Below the pieces are notes generated by a model, which was not told where the DNA came from, ran no database searches, and saw only the letters and a program-made list of their open reading frames with translations. Positions 4,925 through 21,523 of a DNA stretch of 64,000 nt are shown here, piece after piece. Positions within the stretch are counted from its first letter, which is position 1. Every line of letters begins with the position of its first letter. The stretch is from assembly GCA_964650515.1 (NCBI GenBank), contig CAZYUB010000005.1, forward strand, positions 12,304-76,303. The letters are read 5' to 3'. This DNA is from an uncultured Planctomycetia bacterium. GTDB taxonomy: Bacteria > Omnitrophota > Gorgyraeia > Pluralincolimonadales > Pluralincolimonadaceae. Both the position numbers and the translations under genes were made by a program.

Positions 4925-5138
4925 GGATATAGACGGAGAAACGCAAGGATTTCCCATAAAATAGCAACAATGTCATCTTGACAAAGGAACCTGAAAATGG
5001 TATATTTTCCCCGAAATAGTTATACCAGAGTATACTTGCCTTGTTCTCTAGTTAATTAGTAGCATTATGTCTGTACATCTCTGTTTTCATTAACTTAGTA
5101 TACTCGGATATACTAAACAAGGGAAAGGGGGTAGCAGG
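4925..5138 (+). other. AT-rich (about 35% GC) intergenic/leader region. It holds two copies of the palindromic 8-mer AGTATACT (5029-5036, 5097-5104) and a related GATATACT (5107-5114).
   Basis: Read directly from the sequence. The composition stands out against a 60% GC background. Confidence 0.5.
4978..5006 (+). promoter_or_regulatory. Sigma70-type promoter: TTGACA, a 17-nt spacer, then TATATT.
   Basis: TTGACA lies at 4978-4983 and TATATT at 5001-5006. They sit inside a 214-bp AT-rich intergenic region, about 130 nt upstream of the PEP-CTERM gene at 5139. Confidence 0.5.
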
Positions 5139-5768
5139 ATGGTAAAGATGCTCATGGTAATGGCGGTCATGGCTATGGTGCTGTGCCTTAACACCGCGGC
5201 GCATGCTACGGTCCAGTTCGATTTCGCTGCTGATACGCAAGGTTGGGCGGGCGAGGATTGGGGTTCGGGGCTTCCTGCTTTACAGCAGGTTTCGTGGTCC
5301 AAGGATCCCGCAACGGGGAGCCTCGAAGCAAGCACTTCAACCATGACGTATACGCGCGCTGACGGCTCCAACTGGGGCAAAGTATACCTTAAAAGTGATT
5401 TTTCCGCTTCGAAGAACCTGTCCGCAGAACCTCTCTACACGATGGATTTCTACGCTCCCGATAACATCTACTACGCGAAGGCAAAGCTCGGGGTAAGGAC
5501 AGGCGGCTCCTGGGACCTGACCGAATCGAGCGAGATAAGCTTAAATCCCGGCTGGAACACCCTCGTATGGGATATGAGCGGCGCCTCCAACCTTGCCGAC
5601 GCGAGACAGCTTGGCATCGAAGTGTCTGGATGGCTGCCGGTCACCGGCGATGCGAAATGGAATATCGATAACGTTGCGACAAATCCCGTCCCTGAGCCGT
5701 CGAGCATGCTGCTTCTCGGCGCGGGCCTCGCGGGAATATTCGGAGCAAGGAAGAGATCCTCGAAGTGA
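5139..5768 (+). CDS. PEP-CTERM-anchored secreted protein with an N-terminal CBM-like domain.
   Basis: 209 aa with a signal peptide. The C-terminus PVPEPSSMLLLGAGLAGIFGARKRSSK is a PEP motif followed by a TM helix and a basic tail. The N-terminus begins ATVQFDFAADTQGWAGEDWG. A GGGGG-type RBS lies upstream. Confidence 0.8.
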   Translation: MVKMLMVMAVMAMVLCLNTAAHATVQFDFAADTQGWAGEDWGSGLPALQQVSWSKDPATGSLEASTSTMTYTRADGSNWGKVYLKSDFSASKNLSAEPLYTMDFYAPDNIYYAKAKLGVRTGGSWDLTESSEISLNPGWNTLVWDMSGASNLADARQLGIEVSGWLPVTGDAKWNIDNVATNPVPEPSSMLLLGAGLAGIFGARKRSSK

Positions 5769-5798: not shown

Positions 5799-6464
5799 AT
5801 GATTATGATGAAGCGTATCCTCATTATTGCAGCTGTGTTATTGCTCGGTAATCCGGCGTTCGGCGCGACCCTGTATGACTTCGAATCGGGCACCGACGGC
5901 TGGACATTCCAGGATTATACCGACAGCCAGGCAATTTCCGCTGTCGCGCAGTCCTCGGCCCAGGCAAAATCCGGTTCTTACTCGTTGATGGGAACAGCGC
6001 ATCTCGTACCGGGCGACGCCAATTACAGCAAGGGCGAAGTACTGGTCAACAGGGGCGCGGCGAACACGTTGAACCTTAACGGGCTCCAGACGTCGGTATC
6101 CGTATTCGGACCTACGGGAGCGGCGGGAACCAACCCTTCGTCCCCCAACGGATGGCAGGTGTTCTTCAAAGACGCGAACTGGTTGTCATGGTACGGCCCG
6201 TGGACGAACATGACGGTCAACACATGGCAGACATTGTCAGTGACGCCCGGCGTGACGACCCCGGCATTCGTCGATTCCGGCTTCGACCCGACCCAGATAA
6301 TGGTCATGGGAGTGAAGCTCGGCACCGGCGGGGCCTCTACCGGCACCTATGACGGCGCGGTATACGTGGACCAGGTTAGCGTGGTCCCGGAGCCCGCAAG
6401 CATGCTTCTTCTCGGCAGCGGTTTGGTAGGCATCCTTGGTTTCGCGAGAAGGAAGAAGGCTTAA
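5799..6464 (+). CDS. PEP-CTERM-anchored secreted protein with an N-terminal CBM-like domain.
   Basis: 221 aa with a signal peptide. The C-terminus is VVPEPASMLLLGSGLVGILGFARRKKA. The N-terminus begins ATLYDFESGTDGWTFQDY. A GGAGGAGG RBS lies upstream. Confidence 0.8.
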   Translation: MIMMKRILIIAAVLLLGNPAFGATLYDFESGTDGWTFQDYTDSQAISAVAQSSAQAKSGSYSLMGTAHLVPGDANYSKGEVLVNRGAANTLNLNGLQTSVSVFGPTGAAGTNPSSPNGWQVFFKDANWLSWYGPWTNMTVNTWQTLSVTPGVTTPAFVDSGFDPTQIMVMGVKLGTGGASTGTYDGAVYVDQVSVVPEPASMLLLGSGLVGILGFARRKKA

Positions 6465-6516
6465 CAGGCAGTACAAACAAGGCGAGTATAAAAATGGCAA
6501 AGGGGGTATTAAAGCT

Positions 6517-8892
6517 ATGAGGAAAGTCGAAAAAGGCTTGCTCCCTCACCCGAAAATAGCTTTAATCACCCCCTTTGGCATTCCTCCACAGCGCCAGGGC
6601 GTGGCGCTTATAATGACGGTCGGCATCCTCGCGCTCATAACGCTCCTCGGCACGTCCTTCGCGATAAATATGTCCGCAGATTATAAAGGCGCCAGGAACT
6701 CCATCCAGGCCGTAAAGGCAAGGTACCTGGCGGAAGCCGGTATAAACAGGGCGGTCGCGGAGCTGCTCTACGGGGCGGAAGGTTTTACGAGCGACGCAAT
6801 CGATTCCTCGACGGAAGCATGGTCCGGGGCAAACCCGTATTCGGCGAATATAGGAAGCGACAACAGCGGGTATACCGTGACCGCAATATCCGATTGCGCG
6901 GGGCGCATCTTCATAAACGACATGAACCCGAACCTCAGGAACATGCTCGGCAGCCTTGCCGCGGCATGCGGGCTCGCGGCAGCCGACGGGCAGGCAATAT
7001 TCGACAACCGCCCGATAGGGGGGTATTCATCCGTCGAGGAGATAAAGACGGTCCCCGGCTTTACCCAGGTAAAATACGATGCGATATCCGATTCCATTAC
7101 TATCCACGCATATGTCGATCCTGATGTGTCGGCCGCAGCGCACCCGTATTCCGCGTCCCCGAGGGCGCCGGTCAACGTCAATACGGCCGGCAGGGAAGTC
7201 CTTATAGCGGTGCTCGGAGGAGTAAGCAACGGCGCAAACACCATCACATCCGCGGAAGCGGCATCGCTCGCGGACCACCTGATAAACGGCAGGCCTTATT
7301 CCACATACGACCAATTATTGGCGCGGCTGCTGACCGCTGAGACACTCGGTTATATATCGGACGGGGACGCGGCCGTCGCGATGGCCAACGCGAACCCGAA
7401 CACGGACATGATGTCCCTTAACCCGAATTATTCCTGGCGGTATAAACACGTATCAAAGGGGAATCCGAATGATGTCTCGGGATACGATGCCAACGGCCTC
7501 CCGTATGCCGTCGACAAGACATCGCTTTCAGCATATACGACGGAGTTTTCGTTCAACTCCGGCGGTTATTACGAGATAGAATCGGCCGGCATTGCCAGGA
7601 ACGCCGCAGGAATGCAGAATGCGGTAAAGAGGGTCAAGGCCTGCGTCAAGACCTTTGATATATGGCGTCAGACAACCCAGGCGCAGTTCGCGCTCGGGAT
7701 CCCGGCCAACACAGAGCTTTATCCTGAGCCGCCGGCGGTCGCCGCCGCGGCTTATGACGGCCAGGTGATGATATCGAGGATGCGCTCAACCACGCCTGCG
7801 GCTGGCGTCCCGCATTTCCTGCACAAGATGGACGGCCTGGACGCGGACAGCGCAGGCGGGAGCGCGGCAAGGACCAGTTTCGCATGGGTCCCCCTTAACC
7901 CGAACCTCGCAAGCGTGATAGACGCCGCCGATCCCGGCAACGTATTCCCCGACGGGCTCTTCTTCCCGAGGGACGACGCGACTACGAACTACTGGTTCAG
8001 GCCGGAGGGCAACATCGATTCCGCGGACGGCACGCTCGAGATATGGTTCAAGCCGAACTGGCAGTACCACTACGCGACCTTCAACAACGCGTGGCATTCC
8101 GCGAAGGTCTTCGAGGCGCAGGATAGGGGCACCGGGGGCGGCGGGTCGAACTGGGGCAACGCCTCTATGGATATCTATATTGCCGCCGACGACGACACGA
8201 TCCGCTGGAGGATAAACAACAAGAACGGCACGCAGTACACGATGCAGGCGGCGATGCCGAACACCTGGAAGCCGGGTACATGGCACCACATAGCGATAAC
8301 GTGGGATTACGAGGATTTCCTGAACGACCCCGCGCGCGCCCAGACGTTCTATATCGACGGCGCGAGCGTCATGTCATGGAACATAAAGGACGCGCCGAAA
8401 CAGTTCCTCGGGGATAACGGCCTCGAGTTCGGCTGCGATACGCCGTACCAGGAGCCGCCGAACGCGACTTACGGGGAGGTAAGGATATTCGCGTCAAGCG
8501 GCGCGACATCTCCCGGCATGGATTACGCGGCCGGGGTATATTACGATGTAGGCGACGCGGAGTTCCTGTCTTCCGCGAATACGCTCGGCACAGTCAGGTT
8601 AGGGACTCTGTCATGGACCGAGCATACGGCGGATGCCGCGGGAAACCCGGTCGTCCCGGGCGCCGACCTGACGTTCGACATATTCGACGGCGCGGCATGG
8701 CTCGGCAACAGCGCGGGCAGGTCGAACCCGGCGGGCAACCCGCTCGACGCGGTGACCGGAGGCGCGGGCGCGGTCCGATACAGGGCGTATTTCATCGAGA
8801 CAGGCAGCGGCCTCTTCGATACCCCTGTCCTCGACGACGTGACGATAACGTATTTCAGCAGGGCCGAGATGCTTTATTGGAGGGAGTTGTAG
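6517..8892 (+). CDS. GspK-like type II secretion / pseudopilin-family protein fused to a large C-terminal extension containing a LamG (concanavalin A-like lectin) domain.
   Basis: The N-terminus has a GspK-like hydrophobic segment (QRQGVALIMTVGILALITLLG) and two helix-hairpin-helix motifs characteristic of GspK (APVNVNTAGREVLIAVLGG and GGYSSVEEIKTVPGFTQVKYDAI). The C-terminal half has LamG-like segments (LEIWFKPNWQYHYATFNNAWH...WHHIAITWDYED...FYIDGASV). The start was taken at the ATG at 6517, which has an AGGGGG RBS. The ORF track starts at 6436, and an in-frame GTG at 6601 is also possible. Confidence 0.55.
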   Translation: MRKVEKGLLPHPKIALITPFGIPPQRQGVALIMTVGILALITLLGTSFAINMSADYKGARNSIQAVKARYLAEAGINRAVAELLYGAEGFTSDAIDSSTEAWSGANPYSANIGSDNSGYTVTAISDCAGRIFINDMNPNLRNMLGSLAAACGLAAADGQAIFDNRPIGGYSSVEEIKTVPGFTQVKYDAISDSITIHAYVDPDVSAAAHPYSASPRAPVNVNTAGREVLIAVLGGVSNGANTITSAEAASLADHLINGRPYSTYDQLLARLLTAETLGYISDGDAAVAMANANPNTDMMSLNPNYSWRYKHVSKGNPNDVSGYDANGLPYAVDKTSLSAYTTEFSFNSGGYYEIESAGIARNAAGMQNAVKRVKACVKTFDIWRQTTQAQFALGIPANTELYPEPPAVAAAAYDGQVMISRMRSTTPAAGVPHFLHKMDGLDADSAGGSAARTSFAWVPLNPNLASVIDAADPGNVFPDGLFFPRDDATTNYWFRPEGNIDSADGTLEIWFKPNWQYHYATFNNAWHSAKVFEAQDRGTGGGGSNWGNASMDIYIAADDDTIRWRINNKNGTQYTMQAAMPNTWKPGTWHHIAITWDYEDFLNDPARAQTFYIDGASVMSWNIKDAPKQFLGDNGLEFGCDTPYQEPPNATYGEVRIFASSGATSPGMDYAAGVYYDVGDAEFLSSANTLGTVRLGTLSWTEHTADAAGNPVVPGADLTFDIFDGAAWLGNSAGRSNPAGNPLDAVTGGAGAVRYRAYFIETGSGLFDTPVLDDVTITYFSRAEMLYWREL

Positions 8893-9783
8893 ATGAAACG
8901 CGCTCTCATATTATACATGGCGGTATTTTTCGCCTGTGCCTGCTTTCCGGCAGCGGCGGATGTGATAACTATCGGCACCGCGCGCGATACCGAGCTGAAG
9001 GCGGAGGGCTACGGCAGGGCCGCCTCGTCGAAATACGAGCTAAACGTAACCGCCCAGGCGAAACGGCTCGCGAACGGCGACGCGGTGCTGGTCAAATACA
9101 AGACGAACCTGCCCCGGATGACGGTGCTGTATATGTCGGTCCGCTCGCTAGACCAGGTGCTAGTCACGCGCAAACAGACGGTCGAAGGCCCCGAGTTCGC
9201 GATAAGGTTCGGGCCGTTCGACAACAAGAAATTCACGCCGGGCATTTACGTGGTCGAGGTATCGTGCATCCCCGAAAGGCAGGAGAGCGGCGCGGTCAAG
9301 AAGGAGCTCTCCGGCACGGACAAGCTTGTCGCTACGGCAGAACTCAGGATCGGGAACCAGGAGGATTTCGAGGTCACGACCGGCAAACGCAAGGCCGCGC
9401 TGGTAGCGGAGCTCAAAGAACTCGACTCGCTCTACTTCGCGATGAACGATGAATACGCTTTGCAGAAAAAGGAATTCAATAAGGCGAGATGGGACGCGTT
9501 CTCGGAGGATCTCCTCCTGCGCGTGAAGAAGATAGGGGATCTCGACGCGGACTACCGTTCGAAGATGCTCGTCATGGATTACGCGGCCCAGGAGAACATC
9601 AAGATGATGATAGTCGATACGCTCGGCAAGCTCCGGATACGCTATACGGAACAGCTCTGCAAGGACAACGGCGTGGAATTCAGCGCTCCGCCGTCGCCCG
9701 ACAACAGGCCGGCGGATATGCTTAACAAGGTGATGCAGGAACTTCTCGTCAATTCGCTTGACTTTTACTCGACAGGAAATTAA
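8893..9783 (+). CDS. Secreted hypothetical protein with a signal peptide and a coiled-coil-rich C-terminal half.
   Basis: 296 aa. Its ATG abuts the stop of the upstream gene (TAGATG), which suggests translational coupling. I recognise no family. Confidence 0.45.
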   Translation: MKRALILYMAVFFACACFPAAADVITIGTARDTELKAEGYGRAASSKYELNVTAQAKRLANGDAVLVKYKTNLPRMTVLYMSVRSLDQVLVTRKQTVEGPEFAIRFGPFDNKKFTPGIYVVEVSCIPERQESGAVKKELSGTDKLVATAELRIGNQEDFEVTTGKRKAALVAELKELDSLYFAMNDEYALQKKEFNKARWDAFSEDLLLRVKKIGDLDADYRSKMLVMDYAAQENIKMMIVDTLGKLRIRYTEQLCKDNGVEFSAPPSPDNRPADMLNKVMQELLVNSLDFYSTGN

Positions 9784-9792
9784 TATGAAACC

Positions 9793-11037
9793 ATGCGCGG
9801 CCACAAGACCGTAAAAATAACAGGGTGCCTTCTTTTGCCTTTGGCGGCCCTCCTCATGATCTGCCTCCCGGGCTGCGCGAAAAAGACCGGTGAAAAAGAG
9901 ATACTGATGTGGCTCGTCGGCTCGGAGAAGCAGGCCCAGAAGATAACCGAGCTCGGGCTTGATTTCTACAGGGAGACCGGCGTCAAAGTCAGCTGCGAGG
10001 CGATCTCGTGGGGCGAAGCGCACTCTAAATACCTGACCTCCGTCGTCGGTGAGGTGACCCCGGACATCGGCACGATGGGCCTGACGTGGGGGACCGAGTT
10101 CGGCAGCCTGGGCGCGATGGTCGACCTGCGCAAAGAATACCCGGAAGATCTTGAGCGGATATCGAAGAACATATTCCCGGGGCTGGCCGAATCTATCCGC
10201 TTCAACGACAGCGTCTTCGCGGTCCCGTTCGACATGAGCGAATACATAATGTTCTACAGGTCCGACCTGATAAAATCGCCGCCGCGGACGTGGAAAGAGC
10301 TGACATCGCTGCTATCGGAACTTAACGCTTCCGGGAAGTCGATGATAATCGATTGGGGCGGGCTCGGATGGATAGGTTATTGCCCTTACCTCTGGCAGAA
10401 CGGCGGGGATTTCTATAATAAGGACAGGACCTCTGCGACGCTCGATACCGAAGAAGCCGCGGCCGCGATGAGATTCTTCACCGACCTTTACAAGAAATAC
10501 CAGGTGCCCCTCGAGAACAAGCCGGTCGAACAGAGCTTCAGGGTAGGCGACCACCCAATATTCATATCCGGGAACTGGAAGATGAAGAGCCTCACGGATG
10601 TCGCGCCGGAACTCGACGGGAAATGGGCCATAGCGCCGCTTCCCGCCGGGCCGACCGGAAAGCGCACGGGCTTCATCGGCGGAAGGGTCATGGGGATATT
10701 CTCGATGTCGAAGCTGAAGGACGAGTCGTGGGAGTTCATCAAATACCTCTCAAGGGCGGATATACAGGTGAAGCTTTACGAAGCTACGCTCGAATCGCAC
10801 GACACGTACCTGCCCCCGAACATGAAGACGTGGGATACCATGCCAATGGACGCGTCCTTCAAGGGCCCGCTGAAAGATCAGGCGATGGATTCCAAGGGCC
10901 CGCCGTCGGTGCTCGGATGGGATGACAGCACGAGGTTCATAGATACCGCGATACAGCTTATAGTGCTCAAGGGCAGGGACGTGAAGGCGGCCCTTGCCGA
11001 AGCGGACAGGGAACTCGACAGCAGGAGGAAGCATTGA
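9793..11037 (+). CDS. Extracellular solute-binding lipoprotein of a carbohydrate ABC transporter (CUT1 family).
   Basis: The lipobox LPGCAKK follows a signal peptide. The 414-aa protein fits the family-1 binding-protein pattern and is followed directly by two permease genes. Confidence 0.75.
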   Translation: MRGHKTVKITGCLLLPLAALLMICLPGCAKKTGEKEILMWLVGSEKQAQKITELGLDFYRETGVKVSCEAISWGEAHSKYLTSVVGEVTPDIGTMGLTWGTEFGSLGAMVDLRKEYPEDLERISKNIFPGLAESIRFNDSVFAVPFDMSEYIMFYRSDLIKSPPRTWKELTSLLSELNASGKSMIIDWGGLGWIGYCPYLWQNGGDFYNKDRTSATLDTEEAAAAMRFFTDLYKKYQVPLENKPVEQSFRVGDHPIFISGNWKMKSLTDVAPELDGKWAIAPLPAGPTGKRTGFIGGRVMGIFSMSKLKDESWEFIKYLSRADIQVKLYEATLESHDTYLPPNMKTWDTMPMDASFKGPLKDQAMDSKGPPSVLGWDDSTRFIDTAIQLIVLKGRDVKAALAEADRELDSRRKH

Positions 11038-11936
11038 ACCGCGTCCTTAAGGAGATCAACAAGCAGAAGCCGGCGTATTTGTTCATAGCGCCGTCGTTTT
11101 TGCTCTTCACGGTCTTCCTTATCATACCGGTCTTCGCGTCGCTCTACTGGAGCTTTACGGAGTACAATATACTTCAGCCGCCGAAGTTCGTCGGGTTCCA
11201 GAACTACGCGAATATACTCTTCCATGACCCGCGGTTCTGGAAGGCGATGACAAATACGGCCATATTCGTCGTCGGCACGGTGCCGACGAGCATTGCAATA
11301 TCCCTGCTTCTCGCGATGGCGATAGACCAGAATATAAGGTTCAAGAACTGGTTCAAGACGTTCTTCTTTATACCGAGCATCACATCCATAATAGCGGTGT
11401 CCGTCATCTGGAAATGGCTTTACGCGAGCGGAAAATACGGGCTCTTCAACCACTTCCTGTCATCAGTAGGCATCCCGCCGGTCAACTGGCTCGGCGTCGA
11501 CTGGACGCTGCCGTCCATAATACTGATGAGCGTTTGGGGCGGGCTCGGGTATAACATGATTCTCTTCATCGCGGGCCTGCAGGGCATCCCGCAGGTCTTC
11601 TACGAGGCCGCGGAGGTCGACGGCGCGAGCGATTGGGACAAGTTCAGGAACGTGACACTGCCGCTCCTGAGGCCGACGATGCTCTTCGTCACGATAATGT
11701 CGGTAATAAGCGCGTTCCAGGTCTTCGAGCAGGTCTATATAATGACATATAACTCGGAAGGCGCGGTGGGAGGGACCCTCGACTGCGCGCTCACGATAGT
11801 CGCTTACCTTTACGAGACCGGGTTCCAGAGGTTCGCGATGGGGTACGCGTCGGCGCTGGCATACCTTATCTTTTTCGTGCTCTTCATAGTCACTATAATC
11901 AACATGAAGATAGTCGAAAAGAAGATAGAGTACTGA
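11034..11936 (+). CDS. Carbohydrate ABC transporter permease (MalF/UgpA-like).
   Basis: Six predicted TM segments. The EAA loop reads EAAEVDGASDWDKFRNVTLPLLRP. Confidence 0.85.
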   Translation: MNRVLKEINKQKPAYLFIAPSFLLFTVFLIIPVFASLYWSFTEYNILQPPKFVGFQNYANILFHDPRFWKAMTNTAIFVVGTVPTSIAISLLLAMAIDQNIRFKNWFKTFFFIPSITSIIAVSVIWKWLYASGKYGLFNHFLSSVGIPPVNWLGVDWTLPSIILMSVWGGLGYNMILFIAGLQGIPQVFYEAAEVDGASDWDKFRNVTLPLLRPTMLFVTIMSVISAFQVFEQVYIMTYNSEGAVGGTLDCALTIVAYLYETGFQRFAMGYASALAYLIFFVLFIVTIINMKIVEKKIEY

Positions 11937-11937
11937 T

Positions 11938-12819
11938 ATGGACATTAAAGAGATAAAGAGGTTCAACGGGGAAGAGGCGAGGCCTTCAAGCAAGGCGAGG
12001 CAGCAACGGCTGCTTAAGACATTCGTATACATATTCCTCGCAATAGGGTCTTTCATAATGGTGGTCCCGTTCGTCTGGATGGTCGTGACCTCGTTCAAGC
12101 CGCTCGACGAGATAAACACATACCCGCCGAGCTTCTTCATCAGGAAACCGACGTTCGCGGCCTACATCGAGCTGTTCAGCATAATACCGATGGGCAGGTA
12201 TTTCATGAACAGCCTCATAGTGACGTCCTCGATAACGCTCGCGAACATATTCTTCTGCTCGCTGGCCGGATACGCTTTCGCGAAACACCGTTTCTTCGGC
12301 CGCGACAAGCTCTTCCTGCTGCTGGTCGGCTCGATGATGATACCGTGGCAGGTCAACCTGATACCCAGTTTCGTAATAATCAAGAAGTTCGGCTGGCTCA
12401 ACTCGTTCTACGGCCTGATAATACCGGCGATGTCGGGCGCTTTCGGCATATTCCTCATGAGGCAGTTCATAATGAACATCCCGGACGACCTTATCGACGC
12501 CGCGAAGATAGACGGATGCAGCGAATTCACGATATACAGGAGGGTCATACTGCCGCTGATACAGCCGGCGCTCGCCTCCCTGGCGATATTCACGTTCATG
12601 GGCCAGTGGAACAACTTCGTATGGCCGCTCGTGGTCATATATTCGTCGAAGATGAGGACAATACCGCTCGCGCTCTCCGTCCTGAACGGGCAATTCGGCA
12701 CAAATTTCGCGATGGTAATGGCGGGGGCGGTCATAGCGACGCTTCCGGTCCTCATAGTGTTCATAGCGTTCCAGAAGTACTTCATAAAAGGCATAGCCCT
12801 GACAGGCCTGAAGGCCTAG
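11938..12819 (+). CDS. Carbohydrate ABC transporter permease (MalG/UgpE-like).
   Basis: The EAA loop reads DAAKIDGCSEFTIYRRVILPLIQP. It is polytopic. Confidence 0.85.
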   Translation: MDIKEIKRFNGEEARPSSKARQQRLLKTFVYIFLAIGSFIMVVPFVWMVVTSFKPLDEINTYPPSFFIRKPTFAAYIELFSIIPMGRYFMNSLIVTSSITLANIFFCSLAGYAFAKHRFFGRDKLFLLLVGSMMIPWQVNLIPSFVIIKKFGWLNSFYGLIIPAMSGAFGIFLMRQFIMNIPDDLIDAAKIDGCSEFTIYRRVILPLIQPALASLAIFTFMGQWNNFVWPLVVIYSSKMRTIPLALSVLNGQFGTNFAMVMAGAVIATLPVLIVFIAFQKYFIKGIALTGLKA

Positions 12820-12842
12820 CGCGCCCCTATGGGACGCGCTAA

Positions 12843-12886
12843 CTGTTACCGATAACATTGACAAATCCCGGTTCATCGTGTAAACT
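12843..12886 (+). promoter_or_regulatory. LacI-type palindromic operator CTGTTACCGATAACAT (12843-12858) overlapping a sigma70-type promoter (TTGACA at 12858-12863, 17-nt spacer, TAAACT at 12881-12886).
   Basis: Read from the sequence. The reverse complement of this 16-mer occurs upstream of the second LacI gene at 21505-21520. Confidence 0.5.
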
Positions 12887-12907
12887 TTATCGAAGGGTCA
12901 AAAAGCC

Positions 12908-13933
12908 ATGAAACGTTTCGAAAAATCCAGCATAACGATAAAAGACATAGCCAAAAAGGCGGGCGTCGCGCACTCTACGGTCTCTCTTGTTATGAACGAC
13001 CGCGAACACGTGTCGCCGAAGCTGCGCGAGAAGATCTTAAAGATCGCGAACGAGATGGGCTATATGCCCAACATGGTCGCGCGCAGCCTCATCAGCAAGA
13101 AATCCTCCACGGTCGGCGTCGTATTCCCCGAGAACCCGCACTTCTTCACGATAACGTACTTCCTTATGATAATAGAGGGCATCCAGAACGCCTGCAAGAA
13201 GTACAACCGAGCGCTTATGTTCTTCTCGCTCGACCAGACGAAAGGCGAGTCGTATTACCAGATATCCCGCAAATGGCTGATAGACCTGATGATAATAATG
13301 AACGTCGACTACACGAGGGACATCTCAAAAGATATCCAGGACCTGCGCGATAACGGCATATACTTCTCGTTCCTGACGAAATACCTCGGCAAGGAGAAGG
13401 TCAATTCGGTCTGCGTCGATAACTACGAAGGCGTGCGGCTCGCTCTCGAATATTTGGCCTCGCAAGGCCACAAACGGATCGGTTTCATCGCCGGCAACCC
13501 GAACTCGGCGGACGGCCCGGAGAGGTTCCAGGCATATAAGTCGCTCTCGAAGAAATTCGGGTTCGACCAGGACGAAGATCTCATAGCGCAGGGCGATTTC
13601 ACTTTCGAAAGCGGCGAGCGCGAGATGCCGAAACTCCTCGGCCTCAAGAAACGCCCGACGGCGGTCTTCGCCGCGAGCGATTACATGGCGATAGGCGCGA
13701 TGCGCGTGATAAAGGAGCAGGGCCTCTCGATACCTAAAGATATCGCCGTCATGGGGTTCGACAATACGCTCGAAGCCGCGTACGTAGAGCCGGCCCTTAC
13801 GACGGTAAGGCAGCCGCTGCAGGAGATGGGGGAGAAGGCCGTCGACCTCGCGATACGCTCTATGAACGACGAGAATTTTGAACCACAGACGCTTGCCATC
13901 AAACCGGAACTCATAAAGAGACAATCATGCTAA
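12908..13933 (+). CDS. LacI-family transcriptional regulator.
   Basis: The N-terminal HTH reads ITIKDIAKKAGVAHSTVSLVMN. A periplasmic-binding-protein-like sugar-binding fold follows. 341 aa. Confidence 0.85.
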   Translation: MKRFEKSSITIKDIAKKAGVAHSTVSLVMNDREHVSPKLREKILKIANEMGYMPNMVARSLISKKSSTVGVVFPENPHFFTITYFLMIIEGIQNACKKYNRALMFFSLDQTKGESYYQISRKWLIDLMIIMNVDYTRDISKDIQDLRDNGIYFSFLTKYLGKEKVNSVCVDNYEGVRLALEYLASQGHKRIGFIAGNPNSADGPERFQAYKSLSKKFGFDQDEDLIAQGDFTFESGEREMPKLLGLKKRPTAVFAASDYMAIGAMRVIKEQGLSIPKDIAVMGFDNTLEAAYVEPALTTVRQPLQEMGEKAVDLAIRSMNDENFEPQTLAIKPELIKRQSC

Positions 13934-16900
13934 AGATCCGCTTTAACCCATTGGTGTATTATGCCCTTTTCATTTTAGCGGTCTTCGCCGCGCCGGTATT
14001 CGCGGAAGACGCGGCCGCCGCCGCAAACATGACGCAGGGCCCGACTTTCGAGGTAAAACAGGTCGACGGCGTCAACGTCCCGTTCCAGAACGGCATACCT
14101 TTCCCGTCGTGGGAGAGGCAGGAGCGCGCATACGTGGACCTCAACGGCAACTGGAAGACGCAAAGGCAGAAAGCCGACCATAAGCTCACGCTGTATAAGA
14201 GGACGCTGGATAATATCACGCTTGTCGAGCAGGAAGGCGGCGGAAGGCACGGCGCCGGATACGATGATTCCGCGTGGAAAGAGAAAGCCATACCCGGCGT
14301 CGAGAACCCGGCTCCGGACAGGTATATGGACGGCGCATGGTACAGGCGGCATTTCAGCGTTCCGGCGGACGCGGCCGGAAAATACGTCAAACTTATGTTC
14401 GAGGCCGCGAACTATTTTACGGATGTCTGGGTCAACGACAAATGGGTCGGCTGCCATGAAGGCGGATATACGCCGTTCGCGTTCGATGTGAGCCCTTACC
14501 TCAATTACGGAAAGGATAACGTCATAGCCGTGCGGGTCGACAACATACCGTGGATCCCCAACGGCGACTCCTCGAAGGAGGCGCAGGCGACAAACGACCA
14601 TAACATAATCCCGTATGCTACCGGCGACTGGTGGAACTACGGCGGCATAACGAGGAACGTATATCTCGAGATATCGCCGGCCGTATCGGTCGTGCGCGCG
14701 GATGTCCGCTCGAAACCCTCGGGCGAGAAGGACTCCGAGCTGGCAGTCGAAGCGGTCGTTTATAACCGCAGCGGCGAGGAAGTCACGGCGACGGCGGGGG
14801 TCAGGGTCCTGTCGACCGGCATAAAAGATAAGAATATCGGCGAACTTTCGGTCAAGAAGGTCGCCACGAGCAAGACGATGCCCGTCCAGGGCGAGGCCTC
14901 GAAAGAGATAACGCTGAAGCCCGGCGAAGTGCGCGCGATAAGCTTCTCGCTGAAGTCGGGCGCGCTGAAGCACTGGTCGCCGGAGTCGCCGAACCTCTAT
15001 GTCCTGCAGGTCACCCTCGGGGATAAGAAGAAGAAATTCGACGAACTTTATACGCAGTTCGGCGTCAGGGAGGTCCGCGTCGACAAGGACAGCCCGAAGG
15101 TCCTGCTAAACGGCAAAGAGGTATTCTTGCGCGGCATAGCCAGGCACGAGGCATTCTACGGGGAGCCCGGCCCGGGAGAGTTCGGGGCCCCGAGGATCAT
15201 CGAGGATTTCAAACTGATCAAGGAAGCGAACGCGAATTTCGTCAGGACCGCGCATTACCCGAACGAACAGCAGACGTATTCCATAGCGGACAGGATGGGA
15301 TTGCTCGTGTGGGAGGAGATCCCGGTATTCTGGTTCGGCGGGCCCGAGTTCGTGATCCAGAAAAATGTGCGCGGCATCGCGAGGCAGATGTGGCTCGAGA
15401 TGATATACCGCGATTACAACAGGCCGTCTATAGTCATCTGGAGCACCTGCAACGAGTGCAGCTGGCAGAAGGAGAGGGCTGAATTCATAAAAGATCTGAA
15501 GGATAACGCGCAAAAAGCCGACGGCACCCGCCTCGTCGCGCAGTCGGCTTCAGGAAGCGACCCGACGGACCCGACCCAGAAGGAATGCGACATCATCGGG
15601 TTCACTACCTATTACGGAATATTCTACGGAAGCTCCTATTATTCCGACACGAAGGAAGCGCTCGAGAAGACGCGCAAGGCCTTTCCGGGTAAACCGGTGA
15701 TCTCCACCGAATACGGCATCTGGTCCGCTTACGGCGACGTTCCGCAGGAGAAGGTCCAGATAGAGGTCGCGAAGGATACGTTCGCGGCGTTCGCGGAGCT
15801 CCCGTATGTCACCGGCGCTGCGTGGTGGACGATCGCGGATTGGCATACGATGATAAACGAGCCGCAGCATATGGGCCTGCTGACGATAGACAGGAAGTTC
15901 CAGAAGCCCGTATATTTCCAGGTACAGCGCCAGTACGCGATGCTCCTCGGCGACCTTTCCGTCGGCATGAAAGAGCCGAAAGACGAGGAGACCGTAAAAG
16001 GAAAACTGAATATATCCGCCGAGATAACCGGCAAGGAGAAGCCTGAATTCGTCGACCTCATTGTGGAAGGGAAACAGCTCGGGCGCCTCTCTCAGAAGAA
16101 GGGCGTATACCAGATGGAGTTCGATACCGCCAAGATAGAGGACGGCATGAGGACCCTGATCGTGCGCGCGAAGAGCAAGAAAGGATATTTCGTATCCGAT
16201 TTCGTAAGGGTCAATGTCGATAATACCGATGAACCGCCTCTCCTCGGCATAGCGCTGAAGGACGGCGACCTCGTCATGGGCAAGGTGCTGCTGAGCGTGT
16301 CCGCGTCGGACGACAGGGCCGATCCGGTAGTGACGTATTCCGTGGACGGCGCGGAGCCGGAAAAAATGGCGAGCAGGGTAGAGGGTTCCTACCAGGCCGA
16401 ATGGGATGTCTCGGCGTTGGCCGACGGGTCGGAACACGAGATAAGGTTCCGCGCGGCCGATTCGGGCGGGCAGGCAGCGGAACGCAGCGTCAAGGTAAAG
16501 ATAGACGGCAAGCCGGGCAAATACGTCGACCTGCCGTACGACCACGACTGGATATCGGAGAACGGCAGGTATACTGACGGGACCGGATGGGATTACGCCG
16601 CCGAGGACCTGCCTGCATCCAATTCGGAGTTCATATATAACGGAAAGGACAGGGTCAAATTCAGGTTCGGGGACAAATCCGACGGGGCGAAGAATACGGT
16701 AGAGTGCGGCAAGCAAAAAATAACTTTTGCGCCCGGCTATTACGGCAAGGTCCATATACTCGCTGCGATGCATGACGGAGGCGCGAAGGTCCCGTTCCTG
16801 CTGAACTATACGGACGGGACGCAAGGGAAGGCCCTCGCGGGGTTCTCCGACTGGTGGGGCGCCAACGCGGTCTTCGGGGAAGACATAGCGATAAAGACAT

Positions 16901-18507
16901 CACACCACCACGAGGCGAGCGGCGAGCGCAAGCCCGGTTCGGGGATATATATGCAGACGATAGAGCCGGACAGCAGGAAGGTCCTCTCGTCGATAACGCT
17001 GCCGTCCGAGCCGAAACTGCATATCTTCGCGATGACGCTCGAAGGGGAGGTGTCGAACGATGCGATACCGGAGCCGTCGATAACAGCGCCGCAGGCCAAC
17101 TCCTCAGTGGGCGATACCGTGAAGGTCGAGGTCGAGGATAAAGAGGATGATATCGCGAAGGTGGAATATTCGGTCGACTCCGGGGCCTGGGTGCAAATGA
17201 AAGCCGTCGGCGGGGGCAGGTATACCGCCGAATGGGATACGTCAAAGGCCGAGGGGATAAACCACACGATAACGGTGAAGGCTACGGACAAGATAGGCCA
17301 GATAAATACGAAGTCCGTCGAGGTCAGGGTCGTGAACAAGGTCACGATAATATTCCCGTTCGAGGGCGCGAGCATCTACAGGACCGCGACACTGATGGTC
17401 GAGCCGAGGGCGAACCGGGAGATAGAGAAGATAGAGTATTCCGTGGATAACGCGGAGTTCACGCAGTTGTCGCCGTCGGGGATGGGCCTCTATACGGCCG
17501 AATGGGACACGGAGGGCTATAAGGCGGGTTCCGGCCATGTGCTCATAGTCAGGGAGTACGAAAAAGGCGGCGGCGTCACGATAGATACGGTCAAAGTCAC
17601 CGCGGACTCGATAAAGGTCATGATAGCCGAACCGCTGAAAGGCCATTCGATCAAGGTCGACAAGAGCATCCGCGACTGGAAAGGCGAGGCCCCGTCGCAG
17701 GACAATACGGCCACTGTCAATAACGGGGAGTTTATCTGGAAGGACGAGAAGGGCGACGACACCGGCAACGGCCATTATACGTACCCGACGAACAAGGCCG
17801 TCAGCAGGGGCTCCGATCTCAGGGAGTTCCGGATCACATGGGATAATGAGAACCTCTATATGCTTATAAAATGCGACAGGCCCGGTGATTTTTGGGCTCC
17901 TTACAGGATAATAGGGATAGATACCGACGGCGCGAGGGGCGGTAAGGGCGGCTCGCAAGTACTCGCGATCGGCGATATGGATGATGTCAGCCCGGACAGG
18001 GGCTGCTACGGCGAGATAAAGGTCGCGCCGGAGCTCGCGTGCGAATTTACGGTTGGAATATTCAATTCATACAAAGGCAGGATATGGGGGTCGGACGGCA
18101 AGCTCATAGCGTCCAAGGAAGCCAAGCCGGATGATACTCCGGGATTCATGGTCGATGATTACGGCTGGAGTTCGGTCGAGGTAGCGATACCGTGGAAGAT
18201 ACTCGGCGGAGCGCCCCCGTACGGCCAGACATGGAGGTTCGTCGTCGGCATCGGCCAGCAGGATAACGATGTATTCAGGGAGATAGAAAAGGATGCTTCC
18301 GAGTGGCGCGGAGGCGGCGGCGAGTCGAGCGATATGTTCGGGCCCGACCCGGACGTATTCGATCTCGCAAGCCCTGACAGGAAGACCCAGGAATATGAAC
18401 TTCGCAGCTATGATGCACAGGGCGAGCCGGGTAACCCGGACGGCTTTGCTGTTATAAAGAGATCATACCTTGTTGTGACCTTCAGCGAGGAGAAGCCGGC
18501 CAAGTAG
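13927..18507 (+). CDS. Giant secreted GH2-family glycosidase (beta-galactosidase/beta-glucuronidase/beta-mannosidase-like) with four Ig-like repeats, an unknown beta-sandwich domain and a C-terminal module of about 300 aa that is paralogous to the three downstream proteins.
   Basis: 1526 aa with a signal peptide. It has the GH2 sugar-binding domain (WYRRHFSVPADAAGKYVKLMFEAANYFTDVWVNDKWVG), the acid/base motif IWSTCNEC and the nucleophile motif ISTEYG. Repeats of about 90 aa share a Y..EWD motif. The C-terminal module begins around 17611. Confidence 0.8.
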   Translation: MLKIRFNPLVYYALFILAVFAAPVFAEDAAAAANMTQGPTFEVKQVDGVNVPFQNGIPFPSWERQERAYVDLNGNWKTQRQKADHKLTLYKRTLDNITLVEQEGGGRHGAGYDDSAWKEKAIPGVENPAPDRYMDGAWYRRHFSVPADAAGKYVKLMFEAANYFTDVWVNDKWVGCHEGGYTPFAFDVSPYLNYGKDNVIAVRVDNIPWIPNGDSSKEAQATNDHNIIPYATGDWWNYGGITRNVYLEISPAVSVVRADVRSKPSGEKDSELAVEAVVYNRSGEEVTATAGVRVLSTGIKDKNIGELSVKKVATSKTMPVQGEASKEITLKPGEVRAISFSLKSGALKHWSPESPNLYVLQVTLGDKKKKFDELYTQFGVREVRVDKDSPKVLLNGKEVFLRGIARHEAFYGEPGPGEFGAPRIIEDFKLIKEANANFVRTAHYPNEQQTYSIADRMGLLVWEEIPVFWFGGPEFVIQKNVRGIARQMWLEMIYRDYNRPSIVIWSTCNECSWQKERAEFIKDLKDNAQKADGTRLVAQSASGSDPTDPTQKECDIIGFTTYYGIFYGSSYYSDTKEALEKTRKAFPGKPVISTEYGIWSAYGDVPQEKVQIEVAKDTFAAFAELPYVTGAAWWTIADWHTMINEPQHMGLLTIDRKFQKPVYFQVQRQYAMLLGDLSVGMKEPKDEETVKGKLNISAEITGKEKPEFVDLIVEGKQLGRLSQKKGVYQMEFDTAKIEDGMRTLIVRAKSKKGYFVSDFVRVNVDNTDEPPLLGIALKDGDLVMGKVLLSVSASDDRADPVVTYSVDGAEPEKMASRVEGSYQAEWDVSALADGSEHEIRFRAADSGGQAAERSVKVKIDGKPGKYVDLPYDHDWISENGRYTDGTGWDYAAEDLPASNSEFIYNGKDRVKFRFGDKSDGAKNTVECGKQKITFAPGYYGKVHILAAMHDGGAKVPFLLNYTDGTQGKALAGFSDWWGANAVFGEDIAIKTSHHHEASGERKPGSGIYMQTIEPDSRKVLSSITLPSEPKLHIFAMTLEGEVSNDAIPEPSITAPQANSSVGDTVKVEVEDKEDDIAKVEYSVDSGAWVQMKAVGGGRYTAEWDTSKAEGINHTITVKATDKIGQINTKSVEVRVVNKVTIIFPFEGASIYRTATLMVEPRANREIEKIEYSVDNAEFTQLSPSGMGLYTAEWDTEGYKAGSGHVLIVREYEKGGGVTIDTVKVTADSIKVMIAEPLKGHSIKVDKSIRDWKGEAPSQDNTATVNNGEFIWKDEKGDDTGNGHYTYPTNKAVSRGSDLREFRITWDNENLYMLIKCDRPGDFWAPYRIIGIDTDGARGGKGGSQVLAIGDMDDVSPDRGCYGEIKVAPELACEFTVGIFNSYKGRIWGSDGKLIASKEAKPDDTPGFMVDDYGWSSVEVAIPWKILGGAPPYGQTWRFVVGIGQQDNDVFREIEKDASEWRGGGGESSDMFGPDPDVFDLASPDRKTQEYELRSYDAQGEPGNPDGFAVIKRSYLVVTFSEEKPAK

Positions 18508-18522
18508 GGAAAGGTCAGGAAG

Positions 18523-19458
18523 ATGGTAGTGCTAGCGGTCGTGCTGTTGTTGTTGTGCCCGTCCCTGGGTTGCGCGGAAGCCATAGGAAGTACCCCGTTC
18601 ACGGGGCATAAGATAGAAGCTGACAAATCGTTCTCTGACTGGAAGGGTGTCGCGCCTGAGGCCGAGAATACCGCGGCCATCAGCGAAGGCGAGTATATAT
18701 GGAAGGACGCCGTCGGCGACGATACCGGCAACGGGAAGTATACCTATCCTCTCGATAAAGCCCTGAAGAAGGGCGCGGACCTGAAGGAGTTCAGGGTCAC
18801 GTTCGATGACGATAACCTTTACTTTCTCGTAAAGACGAACCGTCCCGGCGACTGGTGGACGCCCTACAGGGTGATAGGCATTGACACCGACGGGGCTTCC
18901 GGAGGCACGGGCGGAATGCAGGTGTTGGCCGAGGGCGACCTGGATACGTTATCGTCGGATTCGGGGACATACGCGGAGCTGAAGGTCGCGCCGGAACTCG
19001 CGTGCGAATACGTCGTGGCGCTCTCATCTACGTACAAGGGCCGTATATGGGATGTGAACGCGAAGCTTGTCGCGTTCAGGGACGACCAGCCGGAGGATAC
19101 GCCCGGGTTCAAGATCGCGGACATAAACTGGAACACGATCGAGGTCGCGATACCGTGGGCGCTGATAGGGGGCAAGCCGCAGGGCAAGGCATACAGGTTT
19201 ATAATCGCGGTGGGGCAGCAGGACGGCGACACTGCCAGGGAAATTCACGAAGTCGCCAGCGAATGGCACGGAGGAGGTGGTGAGACGAGCGACGCCGGCG
19301 GTGTAGATCCCGACGTATACGACCTGGCTGGCGCTGAGCGCGCAGTCCAGGAGAAGGAGCTGGGAAGTTTCAGGATGAGCGCTCCGCCCGGGGACACTGA
19401 GGGCTTCGCTACGATAGACAAGTCATATCTGACGGTCTATTTTGGCCCGAAACAGTGA
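18523..19458 (+). CDS. Secreted paralog B of the GH2 C-terminal module (function unknown; possibly glycan-binding).
   Basis: 311 aa with the signal peptide MVVLAVVLLLLCPSLGCAEA. An RBS (GGAAAGG) lies upstream. It shares every family motif. Confidence 0.7.
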   Translation: MVVLAVVLLLLCPSLGCAEAIGSTPFTGHKIEADKSFSDWKGVAPEAENTAAISEGEYIWKDAVGDDTGNGKYTYPLDKALKKGADLKEFRVTFDDDNLYFLVKTNRPGDWWTPYRVIGIDTDGASGGTGGMQVLAEGDLDTLSSDSGTYAELKVAPELACEYVVALSSTYKGRIWDVNAKLVAFRDDQPEDTPGFKIADINWNTIEVAIPWALIGGKPQGKAYRFIIAVGQQDGDTAREIHEVASEWHGGGGETSDAGGVDPDVYDLAGAERAVQEKELGSFRMSAPPGDTEGFATIDKSYLTVYFGPKQ

Positions 19459-19486
19459 ACCGATAATAAAACAGGAGGTGGTCAGA

Positions 19487-20425
19487 ATGAGAAGGGTATT
19501 GGTAGTTTTGGTTGCGGCGCTGGCGTTCTGCCCGGTCTGGACAGCAGCCAATGCCGAAGACGTCGCCGTGAACGGCCATAAGATAGCGGTCGATAAGGCG
19601 ATACGCGACTGGAAGGGCGTCGCTCCCGAAGCGGATAACACCGCCGCGGTAAGCGAAGGCGAGTACATATGGAAGGACGCCTCAGGCGATGACGCGGGGA
19701 ACGGCAAGTATGCATACCCGCAGAACAAGGCCCTGAAGAAGGGCGGAGACCTGAAGGAGTTCAGGGTCACGTTCGATAACGAGAACCTGTACTTCCTTAT
19801 CAAGACCGACAGGCCCGGCGACTGGTGGGTGCCTTACAGGATAATAGGCATAGATACCGACGGCGCTTCAGGCGGCAAGAACGGCAGCCAGGTGCTCGCG
19901 CAGGGCGACATGGACGAATATGCCTTTGATTCCGGCTGCTTCGCCGAGTTGAAAGTATCTCCGGAACTCGCGTGCGAATACGTAGTCGCGGTATCCTCGA
20001 CGTATAAGGGCCGCATATGGGACGCGAAAGGCAAGATGATAGCGCGCAAGGAAGCCCAGCCCGATGATACGGCCGGCTTCAAGATAGAGGATTACAACTG
20101 GAACGCGGTCGAAGTCGCGATACCGTGGTCGCTGGTAGGCGGCAAGCCCGCCGAAGGCACGTCCTGGAGGTTCGTGGTCGCGATAGGCCAGCAGGATAAC
20201 GACCTCGCTCGCGAAGTCGAAGAGGAAGTAAGCGAATACCGCGCAGGCGGCGGAGAATCGAGCGAAGATAACGGCGTCGATCCGGACGTGTTCGACCTCG
20301 CGGGCGCGGATAAGGCGACCCAGGAGAAGGAGCTCGGCAGCTACAAGGCCGACGGAGAGCCGGGAGACGCGGGCAGTTTCGCGACGATAGACAAATCGTT
20401 CCTTACGGTCAAGTTCGGCAAGTAA
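19487..20425 (+). CDS. Secreted paralog C of the same module.
   Basis: The ATG at 19487 is preceded by an AGGAGG RBS. The ORF track starts at a TTG at 19442, which overlaps the upstream gene. The signal peptide is MRRVLVVLVAALAFCPVWTAANA. It is about 70% identical to paralog B. Confidence 0.7.
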   Translation: MRRVLVVLVAALAFCPVWTAANAEDVAVNGHKIAVDKAIRDWKGVAPEADNTAAVSEGEYIWKDASGDDAGNGKYAYPQNKALKKGGDLKEFRVTFDNENLYFLIKTDRPGDWWVPYRIIGIDTDGASGGKNGSQVLAQGDMDEYAFDSGCFAELKVSPELACEYVVAVSSTYKGRIWDAKGKMIARKEAQPDDTAGFKIEDYNWNAVEVAIPWSLVGGKPAEGTSWRFVVAIGQQDNDLAREVEEEVSEYRAGGGESSEDNGVDPDVFDLAGADKATQEKELGSYKADGEPGDAGSFATIDKSFLTVKFGK

Positions 20426-20506
20426 GGGCGGCGTAAAGATTGCCGGGAGTGCGGAAGGATTGATCAGGGAATCCTTCCGCACGAACGTGCGAGAAAGGAC
20501 GGGAGG

Positions 20507-21466
20507 ATGACAAAAAAGACGGCAGTATACGTCATTTTCGTCGTAGCTCTTTCATTCTGCGATTTCCTATCCGCCGATATGGGCAGCGGTTCGTTGACGG
20601 GCCATCCGATAAGGGTGGATGGGTCGGTTGCCGATTGGACAGGTACCCCGCCATCCAAGCCAAACTCTTCCGTCATAAGCAAGGGCGAATTCATCTGGAA
20701 GGACATTCAGGGAGACGATACGGGGAACGGGAAATACACATACCCGAAGACCCCCGCATTCACGAAATCCGCGGATCTCGAAGAATTCCGCATCACGTGG
20801 GACAGCAAGAATATTTATTTCCTGATAAGGTCATCGAAGCCGGGCGACTGGTGGTCCCCCGTGCGCGTGATAGCGATAGATACCGACGGCATGGGCGGAG
20901 GCAGGAGGGGCATGCAGGTCATCCAGCAAGGCGATATAAATACGATGGATGCCGATACCGGCACTTTCGGCGAACTCAGGGTATCGAAGTCGCTCTCGGC
21001 CGATTATGTCATATGCATAGCCGGCACGTATAAGGGACGCATCTGGGACGCGCAGGGAAGGCTCATAGCTAAGGCGATAGGGGAGAAGACCGATACGAAA
21101 GGATTCAAAATAAAGGATTCAAACGCGGTCGCGCTCGAGGTGCAGGTCCCGCTGAAGATAATAGGTAACCCCGCAGGTAAGACCTGGAGGTTCGTGGTTG
21201 CCATGGGGACGGAAGACAAGGAGCACCTGCGCGAGATATACAAGGAAGCGGATGACTGGCACGGCGGCGGCGGCGAAGCGACGACCTCCGACGACGGGGT
21301 AGACCCGGACTATTTCGACCTGGCAAGCCCGGACCAGAACACGCAGGAGATAGAGCTCTCAAGTTATAAGCCGAATGCGCCGGCCGGGGATACGTCGGCG
21401 TTCGCGGAGATAAAGAAATCATTCCTGCAGGTGAAGTTTTCCCCCTACATGCAGGTTGCGAAGTAA
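20507..21466 (+). CDS. Secreted paralog D of the same module; this is the most divergent copy.
   Basis: 319 aa with a signal peptide. It keeps the GEFIWKD..GDDTGNGKYTYP, IAIDTDG, TYKGRIWDAQG, WRFVVAMG and WHGGGGE motifs. Confidence 0.65.
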   Translation: MTKKTAVYVIFVVALSFCDFLSADMGSGSLTGHPIRVDGSVADWTGTPPSKPNSSVISKGEFIWKDIQGDDTGNGKYTYPKTPAFTKSADLEEFRITWDSKNIYFLIRSSKPGDWWSPVRVIAIDTDGMGGGRRGMQVIQQGDINTMDADTGTFGELRVSKSLSADYVICIAGTYKGRIWDAQGRLIAKAIGEKTDTKGFKIKDSNAVALEVQVPLKIIGNPAGKTWRFVVAMGTEDKEHLREIYKEADDWHGGGGEATTSDDGVDPDYFDLASPDQNTQEIELSSYKPNAPAGDTSAFAEIKKSFLQVKFSPYMQVAK

Positions 21467-21520: not shown

Positions 21521-21523
21521 AAT

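Follow-up and report, generated by a model that had tools for sequence, protein, structure and literature searches.

The 64,000-nucleotide stretch of an Omnitrophota genome analyzed here (the window) contains two genes for LacI-family regulators, LacI-1 and LacI-2, in a glycan-utilization locus, and nearly the same 16-bp palindrome occurs at the promoter of each (site 1 and site 2, respectively; Table 1). We propose that a LacI-2 dimer probably binds both palindromes, repressing its own operon (LacI-2, a GH161-type phosphorylase, and a GH35 enzyme) through site 2 and the operon of LacI-1 and a GH2 enzyme through site 1. Three independent lines of sequence evidence point to LacI-2 as the most likely binder: the published recognition code of the family, a check of the same recognition residues on unrelated regulators, and the co-occurrence of the site with the LacI-2 gene among relatives.

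Two Copies of a LacI-Type Palindrome

When reverse-complemented, site 1 (CTGTTACCGATAACAT) agrees with site 2 (ATGTTATCGGTAACAT) at 15 of 16 positions, and their 14-bp cores (TGTTACCGATAACA and TGTTATCGGTAACA, respectively) are exact reverse complements. Both 16-mers are even-length palindromes with arms ATGTTA/TAACAT around nCGn, in which TGTTA/TAACA forms a perfect inverted repeat about a central CG. By its sequence, the consensus of the two sites, ATGTTAnCGnTAACAT, is of the LacI/GalR operator type; operators of this family are even palindromes of 16–22 nt with a central CG pair (Ravcheev 2014, PMC4052901). There is no third copy in the 64 kb, where the next-best matches to TGTTAYCGRTAACA have at least three mismatches. 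One weak copy, TGTTTTCATTAACT at 5082 (intergenic region 4925–5138), was rejected, having four mismatches and no CG center. The initial annotation, made from the letters of the window, had given the same coordinates, 15/16 match, arms, and CG center, and had noticed no other copy in the other intergenic regions; all of this is exactly as found here.

How often such a pair would arise by chance was estimated by drawing sequences at random from a first-order model of the window, in pairs of 88 nt and 57 nt to match the lengths of the two intergenic regions. A 14/14 common word on either strand appeared in 6 of 257,000 simulated pairs (~2e-5), palindromy not being demanded. Together with a background count, this exact-word simulation replaced a shuffle test that allowed up to two mismatches and was weak (0.37 matches expected; 6 of 100 shuffles reached two matches). 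In the background count, exact TGTTANCGNTAACA has two copies in 1.04 Mb of unrelated loci, each of them beside a LacI-family gene.

Promoters were predicted by a scan for the sigma-70-like consensus over 9.5–29 kb, with the transcription start placed ~7 nt after the -10 element; positions relative to the start refer to these predicted starts. The two promoters that bear the sites are the top two plus-strand intergenic consensus matches in this interval, with that of LacI-2 ranking first. Site 1 abuts the -35 hexamer of the LacI-1 promoter (12858–12863), overlapping it by 1 bp, and is centered at ~-42.5. Site 2 sits between the -10 hexamer (21499–21504) and the LacI-2 ATG (21524), ending 3 nt before the latter; it covers ~-6 to +10 and is centered at ~+1.5. 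At -19 to -4 from the ATG, site 2 is nearer than the usual range of -140 to -30 (Ravcheev 2014, PMC4052901). These positions agree with the original placement of site 1 in overlap with the -35 element and of site 2 between the -10 element and the start codon.

The same annotation drew attention to an 11-mer, TTGACAAATCC, common to both promoters. Within the window this word is indeed found only at 12858 and 21477; as a conserved functional element beyond the -35 it was rejected. Orthologs show TTGACAAAACC, TTGACAAAGCA, TTGACAAAATA, and TTGACATGCCT in its place, only TTGACA(A) is conserved, and ATCC is limited to the closest relatives of the window. The -35 and -10 elements of the LacI-1 promoter are kept in all LacI-1 orthologs.

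A GC-rich hairpin lacking a U-tract lies just 5' of site 1 (Table 1), and the 45-nt stretch that holds it along with a smaller one (12798–12842) folds at -23.3 kcal/mol. Relatives have hairpins of differing sequence in the same spot before the LacI-1 promoter. Because the hairpin directly follows the stop codon of an ABC permease gene, the LacI-1 promoter seems to begin a transcription unit of its own; the hairpin itself is possibly the 3' end, an insulator, or a stabilizer of the upstream ABC-transporter operon.

Conservation of the Sites in Omnitrophota

For comparison, 14 orthologous LacI-1 loci were taken from genomes and further LacI-2 loci from metagenomes and assemblies; a metagenome scan with LacI-2 gave five loci, three of which duplicate genome loci. 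The contigs of L002–L004 and L008 stop before the LacI-2 position. Alignments and the further loci show that orthologous Omnitrophota loci keep the arms TGTTA/TAACA but differ in flanks and spacers.

Site 1 reads CTGTTACCGATAACAT in L001 and L013, [C/G]TGTTAGCGATAACAT in L002–L004, TTGTTATCGCTAACAT in L005 and L006, ATGTTACCGCTCACAT in L009 and L087, and ATGTTATCGGTCACAT in L085. In L001–L006 and L013 it corresponds to TGTTA[C/G/T]CG[A/C/G]TAACA, with the arms kept and both inner n positions varying; L009, L085, and L087 retain it with a C in the right arm (TCACA). Its distance to the LacI-1 ATG is constant in L001–L006, L009, L013, L085, and L087, and the sequence 5' of it diverges, including the hairpin region. 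Site 2 is ATGTTATCG[G/A]TAACAT followed by TAA[T/C/G]ATG in L001, L013, L081, L009/L087, and L085, which makes it invariant in five lineages except for one central base. Around it, the promoter spacer diverges (AATCCGCCGCCGATGG in the window versus TGCCTGCTTACGGGGC in L081, which retains TTGACA-16-TATAAG), and in L009 the sequence upstream of site 2 is wholly different. With their even CG-centered palindromes, LacI-family neighbors, promoter positions, and conservation in orthologous loci, the two sites are, on sequence grounds, real and conserved LacI-type operator sites, in line with their first designation as LacI/GalR operators.

In some relatives the LacI-2 promoter has been deleted. L005 (18584–18604), L006 (17009–17029), and L083 have lost it together with site 2, leaving a gap of ~18 bp, and in L089 (6651–6663) only AAGTAATCGATAACAT is left. 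LacI-2 starts 13–20 bp after the upstream gene in these four loci, and with its promoter deleted and the gene so close behind its neighbor, it would be transcribed from the LacI-1 promoter. In L005 and L006, site 1 is still present at the LacI-1 promoter, which falls off the contig in L083 and L089.

Probable Recognition of the Shared Site by LacI-2

A recognition code for the LacI family was described by Camas et al. (2010, PMC2978694), in which Arg at amino acid 20 (AA-20) goes with G at nucleotide position NT-6, the residues at AA-15/16 set NT-5/4, and the hinge residue Leu54 goes with a central CG. According to Table S1 of that study, Met16 is paired with T at NT-4: regulators with KM at AA-15/16 have TT at 43 sites, the EM and LM classes also have TT, and the AM class has AT or TT, with the PM, SM, and TM classes showing mostly AT at NT-5/NT-4. 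The half-site in the window is T(-7) G(-6) T(-5) T(-4) A(-3). Numbered as in PurR, the recognition helix of LacI-2 (V-S-P15-M16-H-V-S-R20) fits this half-site, with M16 for T at NT-4, R20 for G at NT-6, and the hinge Leu present. That of LacI-1 (V-A-H15-S16-T-V-S-L20) does not, on account of S16 and L20; the HS class, with the H15 and S16 of LacI-1, reads TGCACACGTGTGCA (Camas et al., 2010, PMC2978694), which is unlike the window palindrome. Both window cores are letter-identical to KM-class sites in Dataset S1 of the same study, namely TGTTACCGATAACA of Salmonella gntR and TGTTATCGGTAACA of Bacillus subtilis yvdE.

Unrelated regulators served as an independent check. Among 53 unrelated LacI-family regulators, three possess both M16 and R20, and two of these have exact TGTTAnCGnTAACA nearby (L016, helix STMTVSR; L017, helix SAMTVSR); the word is found near none of the remaining 50.

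The third line of evidence comes from gene content. Site 1 is intact in every locus with a visible LacI-2 gene (the window, L001, L013, L005, L006, L009/L087, and L085). In L007, where LacI-2 is missing from its syntenic place and the third Glucodextran_C gene runs directly into the GH161 gene, it has decayed to GCGTTGGCGGTCACAT, and it is gone in L008, with a contig too short to reach the LacI-2 position, as well as in L010 and L011, in which no LacI-2 gene is seen. The helix-turn-helix and hinge of LacI-1 are identical in L001–L010, save conservative changes at hinge residues 56–57 in L009 and L010, and the LacI-2 helix-turn-helix is identical in all orthologs save one V-to-I change in L009. 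Among sister loci, L085 shares the arrangement of L007 and L008, with a DUF5060 paralog upstream of LacI-1, yet has LacI-2 and both sites intact, whereas L007 has neither LacI-2 nor an intact site.

Several observations weigh against the assignment to LacI-2 or against parts of it. At positions 17–20, LacI-2 has HVSR and LacI-1 has TVSL, both of which lie outside the TVSR set behind the published code. Moreover, the PM class, to which LacI-2 would belong by its residues, mostly reads GATA, and only one PM regulator has TGTTAGCGCTAACA. The co-occurrence stems from few independent lineages and incomplete contigs, and LacI-2 could be located elsewhere in the genomes of L007, L010, or L011. Since site 2 is missing from L005, L006, and L083, autoregulation through it is not universal. 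Finally, a center at ~-42.5 is also a classic activator position.

A Candidate Operator for LacI-1

LacI-1 probably has an operator of its own. A perfect 10-bp palindrome, GAAACGTTTC, at 12910–12919 overlaps its start codon (ATG AAA CGT TTC GAA) and is invariant in 11 LacI-1 orthologs. No synonymous change is seen in LacI-1 codons 2–4, whereas 53 of 65 degenerate codons within the first 70 vary. Related copies lie at further promoters. L010 has GAAACGTGTC at the start codon, and the exact reverse complement of this copy lies within TTCGACACGTTTCGAA (13923–13938), downstream of the -10 element of the promoter of the next operon; in L014, ATCAAAACGTGTCGAA (9858–9873) directly follows TTGACA-17-TAATAT. 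In keeping with Leu20 of LacI-1, this palindrome lacks a G at NT-6. Judging from these features, LacI-1 probably autoregulates through GAAACGTTTC at its start codon, and a candidate motif for this putative operator may be written as TTCGAAACGTTTCGAA. If LacI-1 reads GAAACGTTTC, as is likely, the LacI-1/GH2 promoter would carry two unlike operators, at ~-42.5 and ~+22.

The predicted LacI-2 transcript has a leader of only ~13 nt with no Shine-Dalgarno sequence (21511–21526), and in the LacI-1 leader there is no more than an AAGGG at a distance; both genes may be translated in a near-leaderless or Shine-Dalgarno-independent manner.

Proposed Regulation and Its Alternatives

In the regulation that we propose, a LacI-2 dimer at site 2 would lie across the start of its own promoter and repress the LacI-2/GH161/GH35 operon, an autoregulation in which occupancy would block open-complex formation or promoter escape. 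At site 1, a LacI-2 dimer placed against the LacI-1 -35 would repress the operon of LacI-1, the GH2 enzyme, and the surface modules, a cross-regulation in which occupancy would occlude the -35 and sigma region 4. A sugar effector would then release LacI-2 and switch both operons on together, and LacI-1 would provide a second, separate input to its own operon via GAAACGTTTC. We infer repression rather than activation because both promoters are near consensus and because L007, which has lost LacI-2, has the same -35 and extended -10 as L085; the span of site 2 from -6 to +10 also counts for repression. Such an arrangement supports the earlier suggestion that the common site links the two halves of the locus, with GH2 in one and GH161/GH35 in the other.

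The locus might also hold a two-tier LacI cascade, in which LacI-2 as the master regulator would repress itself from +1.5 and control LacI-1/GH2 from ~-42.5, perhaps as an activator. We regard this design as rather unlikely. If true, the LacI-1 promoter would integrate two sugar signals via unlike operators ~64 bp apart.

LacI-family proteins such as Cra/FruR and CcpA activate from upstream sites. It is conceivable, if unlikely, that LacI-2 binds both palindromes with opposite signs, repressing at site 2 and activating LacI-1/GH2 at site 1. The center of site 1 at ~-42.5, immediately 5' of the -35, resembles the position of a class II activator, and the -10 of the window promoter, TAAACT, is imperfect. 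However, the same promoter has a perfect TTGACA and a 17-nt spacer, relatives carry an extended -10, and L007 lost both LacI-2 and the site with no compensating promoter change in comparison with L085. The overlap of the 16-mer with the -35 by one base likewise favors occlusion.

A different possibility, which we consider quite unlikely, is that LacI-1 binds the palindrome, alone or with LacI-2, so that site 1 would represent classical LacI-1 autoregulation. Site 1 lies directly upstream of LacI-1, the canonical LacI-1 hinge (PNMVARSL) suits a CG center, and autoregulation is predicted for 72% of the regulators in the LacI family (Ravcheev 2014, PMC4052901). Nevertheless, Leu at AA-20 and Ser at AA-16 predict neither G at NT-6 nor T at NT-4, the site is decayed or absent in L007, L008, L010, and L011 despite an identical LacI-1 DNA-binding domain, and LacI-1 has another conserved palindrome, GAAACGTTTC, that recurs at further promoters in LacI-1 loci. 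The initial annotation had foreseen autoregulation of both genes, with one or both regulators recognizing the shared site. Autoregulation of LacI-2 via site 2 is well supported, and LacI-2 with P15, M16, and R20 fits the code; LacI-1, with H15, S16, and L20, is probably not the binder, and its autoregulation through site 1 is made improbable by the misfit of these residues, by the loss or decay of the site where LacI-2 is missing, and by the candidate palindrome of its own.

The cre consensus recognized by CcpA is degenerate (TGWAANCGNTNWCA). Compared by eye, the core of the window sites is one mismatch from this consensus, and the view is of 64 kb of the genome; the sites might be bound by a third regulator whose gene lies elsewhere, such as a CcpA-type regulator of global catabolite control. 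This is very unlikely: within the 64 kb the site occurs only at two regulator-gene promoters, its presence tracks the LacI-2 gene across lineages, and LacI-2 carries the residues expected for the half-site.

It is least probable, and barely credible, that the palindromes are no protein operators at all but either the remnant of a promoter cassette that was duplicated or a hairpin formed by the RNA of the LacI-2 leader, for although both window promoters have TTGACAAATCC in common and a transcribed site 2 could form a 6-bp stem just before the ATG, the palindrome is conserved and the 11-mer is not, and site 1 lies upstream of its promoter. Cassette duplication was rejected for the differing order of elements (the operator is 5' of the -35 at site 1 and 3' of the -10 at site 2), and a known RNA element was rejected after a scan against Rfam, which matched neither site to a family and gave as its sole hit in the window a tRNA at 50332–50402.

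Comparison with Known Systems

The closest parallels for the shared site are found in GntR and IdnR of Escherichia coli and Salmonella, whose operator, ATGTTA-N4-TAACAT, matches the window sites. Over its 14-bp core, site 1 is identical to ATGTTACCGATAACAG from the E. coli gntT region, which has been used as a working GntR site (PMC10450161), and to the predicted Salmonella gntR-gntK site. GntR has Met16 and Arg20 in its recognition helix, as does LacI-2, and both GntR and IdnR are local sugar-responsive repressors with promoter-overlapping sites, like the proposed role of LacI-2. In contrast, GntR has Lys15 and Thr17 where LacI-2 has Pro15 and His17, and the targets of GntR and IdnR are transport and phosphorylation of gluconate and idonate, as opposed to the GH2, Glucodextran_C, GH161, and GH35 genes found here. 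LacI-2 shares 24% identity with Salmonella GntR and with E. coli IdnR, which puts these two no nearer to it than any other family member. By these comparisons, LacI-2 is not a GntR ortholog, and the common site reflects a common recognition code, not orthology. A similar case is YvdE of B. subtilis, of the KMTVSR class, for which a predicted site downstream of yvdE, TGTTATCGGTAACA, equals the core of site 2. Like LacI-2, YvdE carries Met16 and Arg20; the two proteins share 26% identity and come from different phyla, and the GH2/GH161/GH35 context differs.

More generally, the locus resembles the autoregulated local LacI regulons described in the manner of RegPrecise, which are the usual form in the family and share with it an even CG-centered palindrome, adjacent carbohydrate genes, and sites ~20–70 bp from the regulator start codon (Ravcheev 2014, PMC4052901). 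Unlike these generic regulons, the window locus has two paralogous regulators, 27% identical to each other, with two different operators, and LacI-2 apparently controls the operon of the other regulator. The regulatory design is thus probably an ordinary one without a new principle, the refinement being that the common site probably belongs to LacI-2 alone and that LacI-2 regulates the LacI-1 operon. In the locus L016, from an unrelated metagenome-assembled genome (MAG), two sites overlap at a distance of 13 bp (ACATGTTAACGATAACAGTTAACGATAACATG; 11570–11605) between a 909-aa gene and the LacI-family gene with the STMTVSR helix. GntR sites have been described in the same overlapping arrangement, again 13 bp apart (Ravcheev 2014, PMC4052901).

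The analysis provides a concrete assignment of an operator to a regulator for Candidatus Omnitrophota, and suggests that recognition rules drawn from Proteobacteria and Firmicutes (Met16/Arg20 with GTTA half-sites) hold in this group. To our knowledge, Candidatus Omnitrophota are uncultured and have essentially no characterized transcription factors. The assignment also defines a small regulon of a GH2 enzyme, surface-anchoring modules, a GH161 phosphorylase, and a GH35 enzyme, which aids the annotation of this glycan-utilization locus.

The Regulators and Their Genomic Context

Both regulators combine a LacI (PF00356) helix-turn-helix with a Peripla_BP_1/3 domain. At ~340 aa they are as long as the chains of dimeric PurR (340 aa), their best matches, and shorter than the Lac repressor (360 aa). 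The closest solved relatives of LacI-2 are ancestral LacI, PurR, RbsR, and CcpA; its orthologs are confined to Omnitrophota, with identity falling from 68% to 33%. For LacI-1, proteins with 98% identity occur in two Omnitrophota MAGs, and an exact-protein look-up gave no match.

The synteny of the genes downstream of site 1 (13927–21466) is kept in relatives. Downstream of site 2, the 1099-aa protein first described as GH94-like has no Pfam match and resembles the GH161 phosphorylase structures 9qqk (E = 3.8e-196) and 9h8v, both with E of ~1e-196; the earlier label was roughly right, the protein being a GH161 phosphorylase homolog, and Pfam does not seem to cover this family.

Table 1. Features of the window discussed in the text, with the main sites and promoters first.
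Feature	Position	Strand	Details
Site 1, LacI-type operator candidate	12843–12858 (core 12844–12857)	.	CTGTTACCGATAACAT
Site 2, LacI-type operator candidate	21505–21520	.	ATGTTATCGGTAACAT
Predicted sigma-70-type promoter, LacI-1/GH2 operon	12858–12886	+	TTGACA, 17 nt, TAAACT; 10/12 consensus matches
Predicted promoter, LacI-2/GH161/GH35 operon	21477–21504	+	TTGACA, 16 nt, TATTAT, upstream TG (extended -10); 11/12 matches
Candidate LacI-1 operator	12907–12922	.	CATGAAACGTTTCGAA; ~+22 from predicted start
GC-rich hairpin	12817–12841	+	Directly after ABC permease stop codon, just 5' of site 1; no U-tract
LacI-1, LacI-family regulator	12908–13933	+	Pfam; helix AHSTVSL (H15, S16, L20); first gene of site-1 operon
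GH2 enzyme, 1526 aa	13927–18507	+	Pfam; downstream of site 1
Three Glucodextran_C (SLH-like) proteins	18523–19458, 19442–20425, 20507–21466	+	Pfam; downstream of site 1
LacI-2, LacI-family regulator	21524–22537	+	Pfam LacI and Peripla_BP_3; helix SPMHVSR (P15, M16, R20)
GH161-type phosphorylase, 1099 aa	22555–25854	+	PDB match; downstream of site 2
GH35 beta-galactosidase	25868–28636	+	Pfam GH35; downstream of site 2
GH130 phosphorylase	286–1215	+	Pfam
ROK kinase	1263–2096	+	Pfam
DUF5060 protein	2093–4924	+	Pfam
Two PEP-CTERM proteins	5139–5768, 5799–6464	+	Pfam
Pseudopilin-like LamG protein	6436–8892	+	Pfam
296-aa protein	8893–9783	+	No Pfam match
ABC sugar importer (binding protein and two permeases)	9793–12819	+	Pfam
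gltB, gltD	from 28758	+	

The C-terminal part of the GH2 enzyme and the three tandem genes that follow it (17600–21466) carry Glucodextran_C modules that are 48–69% identical to one another, and the number of separate Glucodextran_C genes varies from two to three among relatives. Across the window as a whole, nearly all long open reading frames lie on the plus strand, and GC skew and AT skew are each positive in 31 of 32 two-kb bins.

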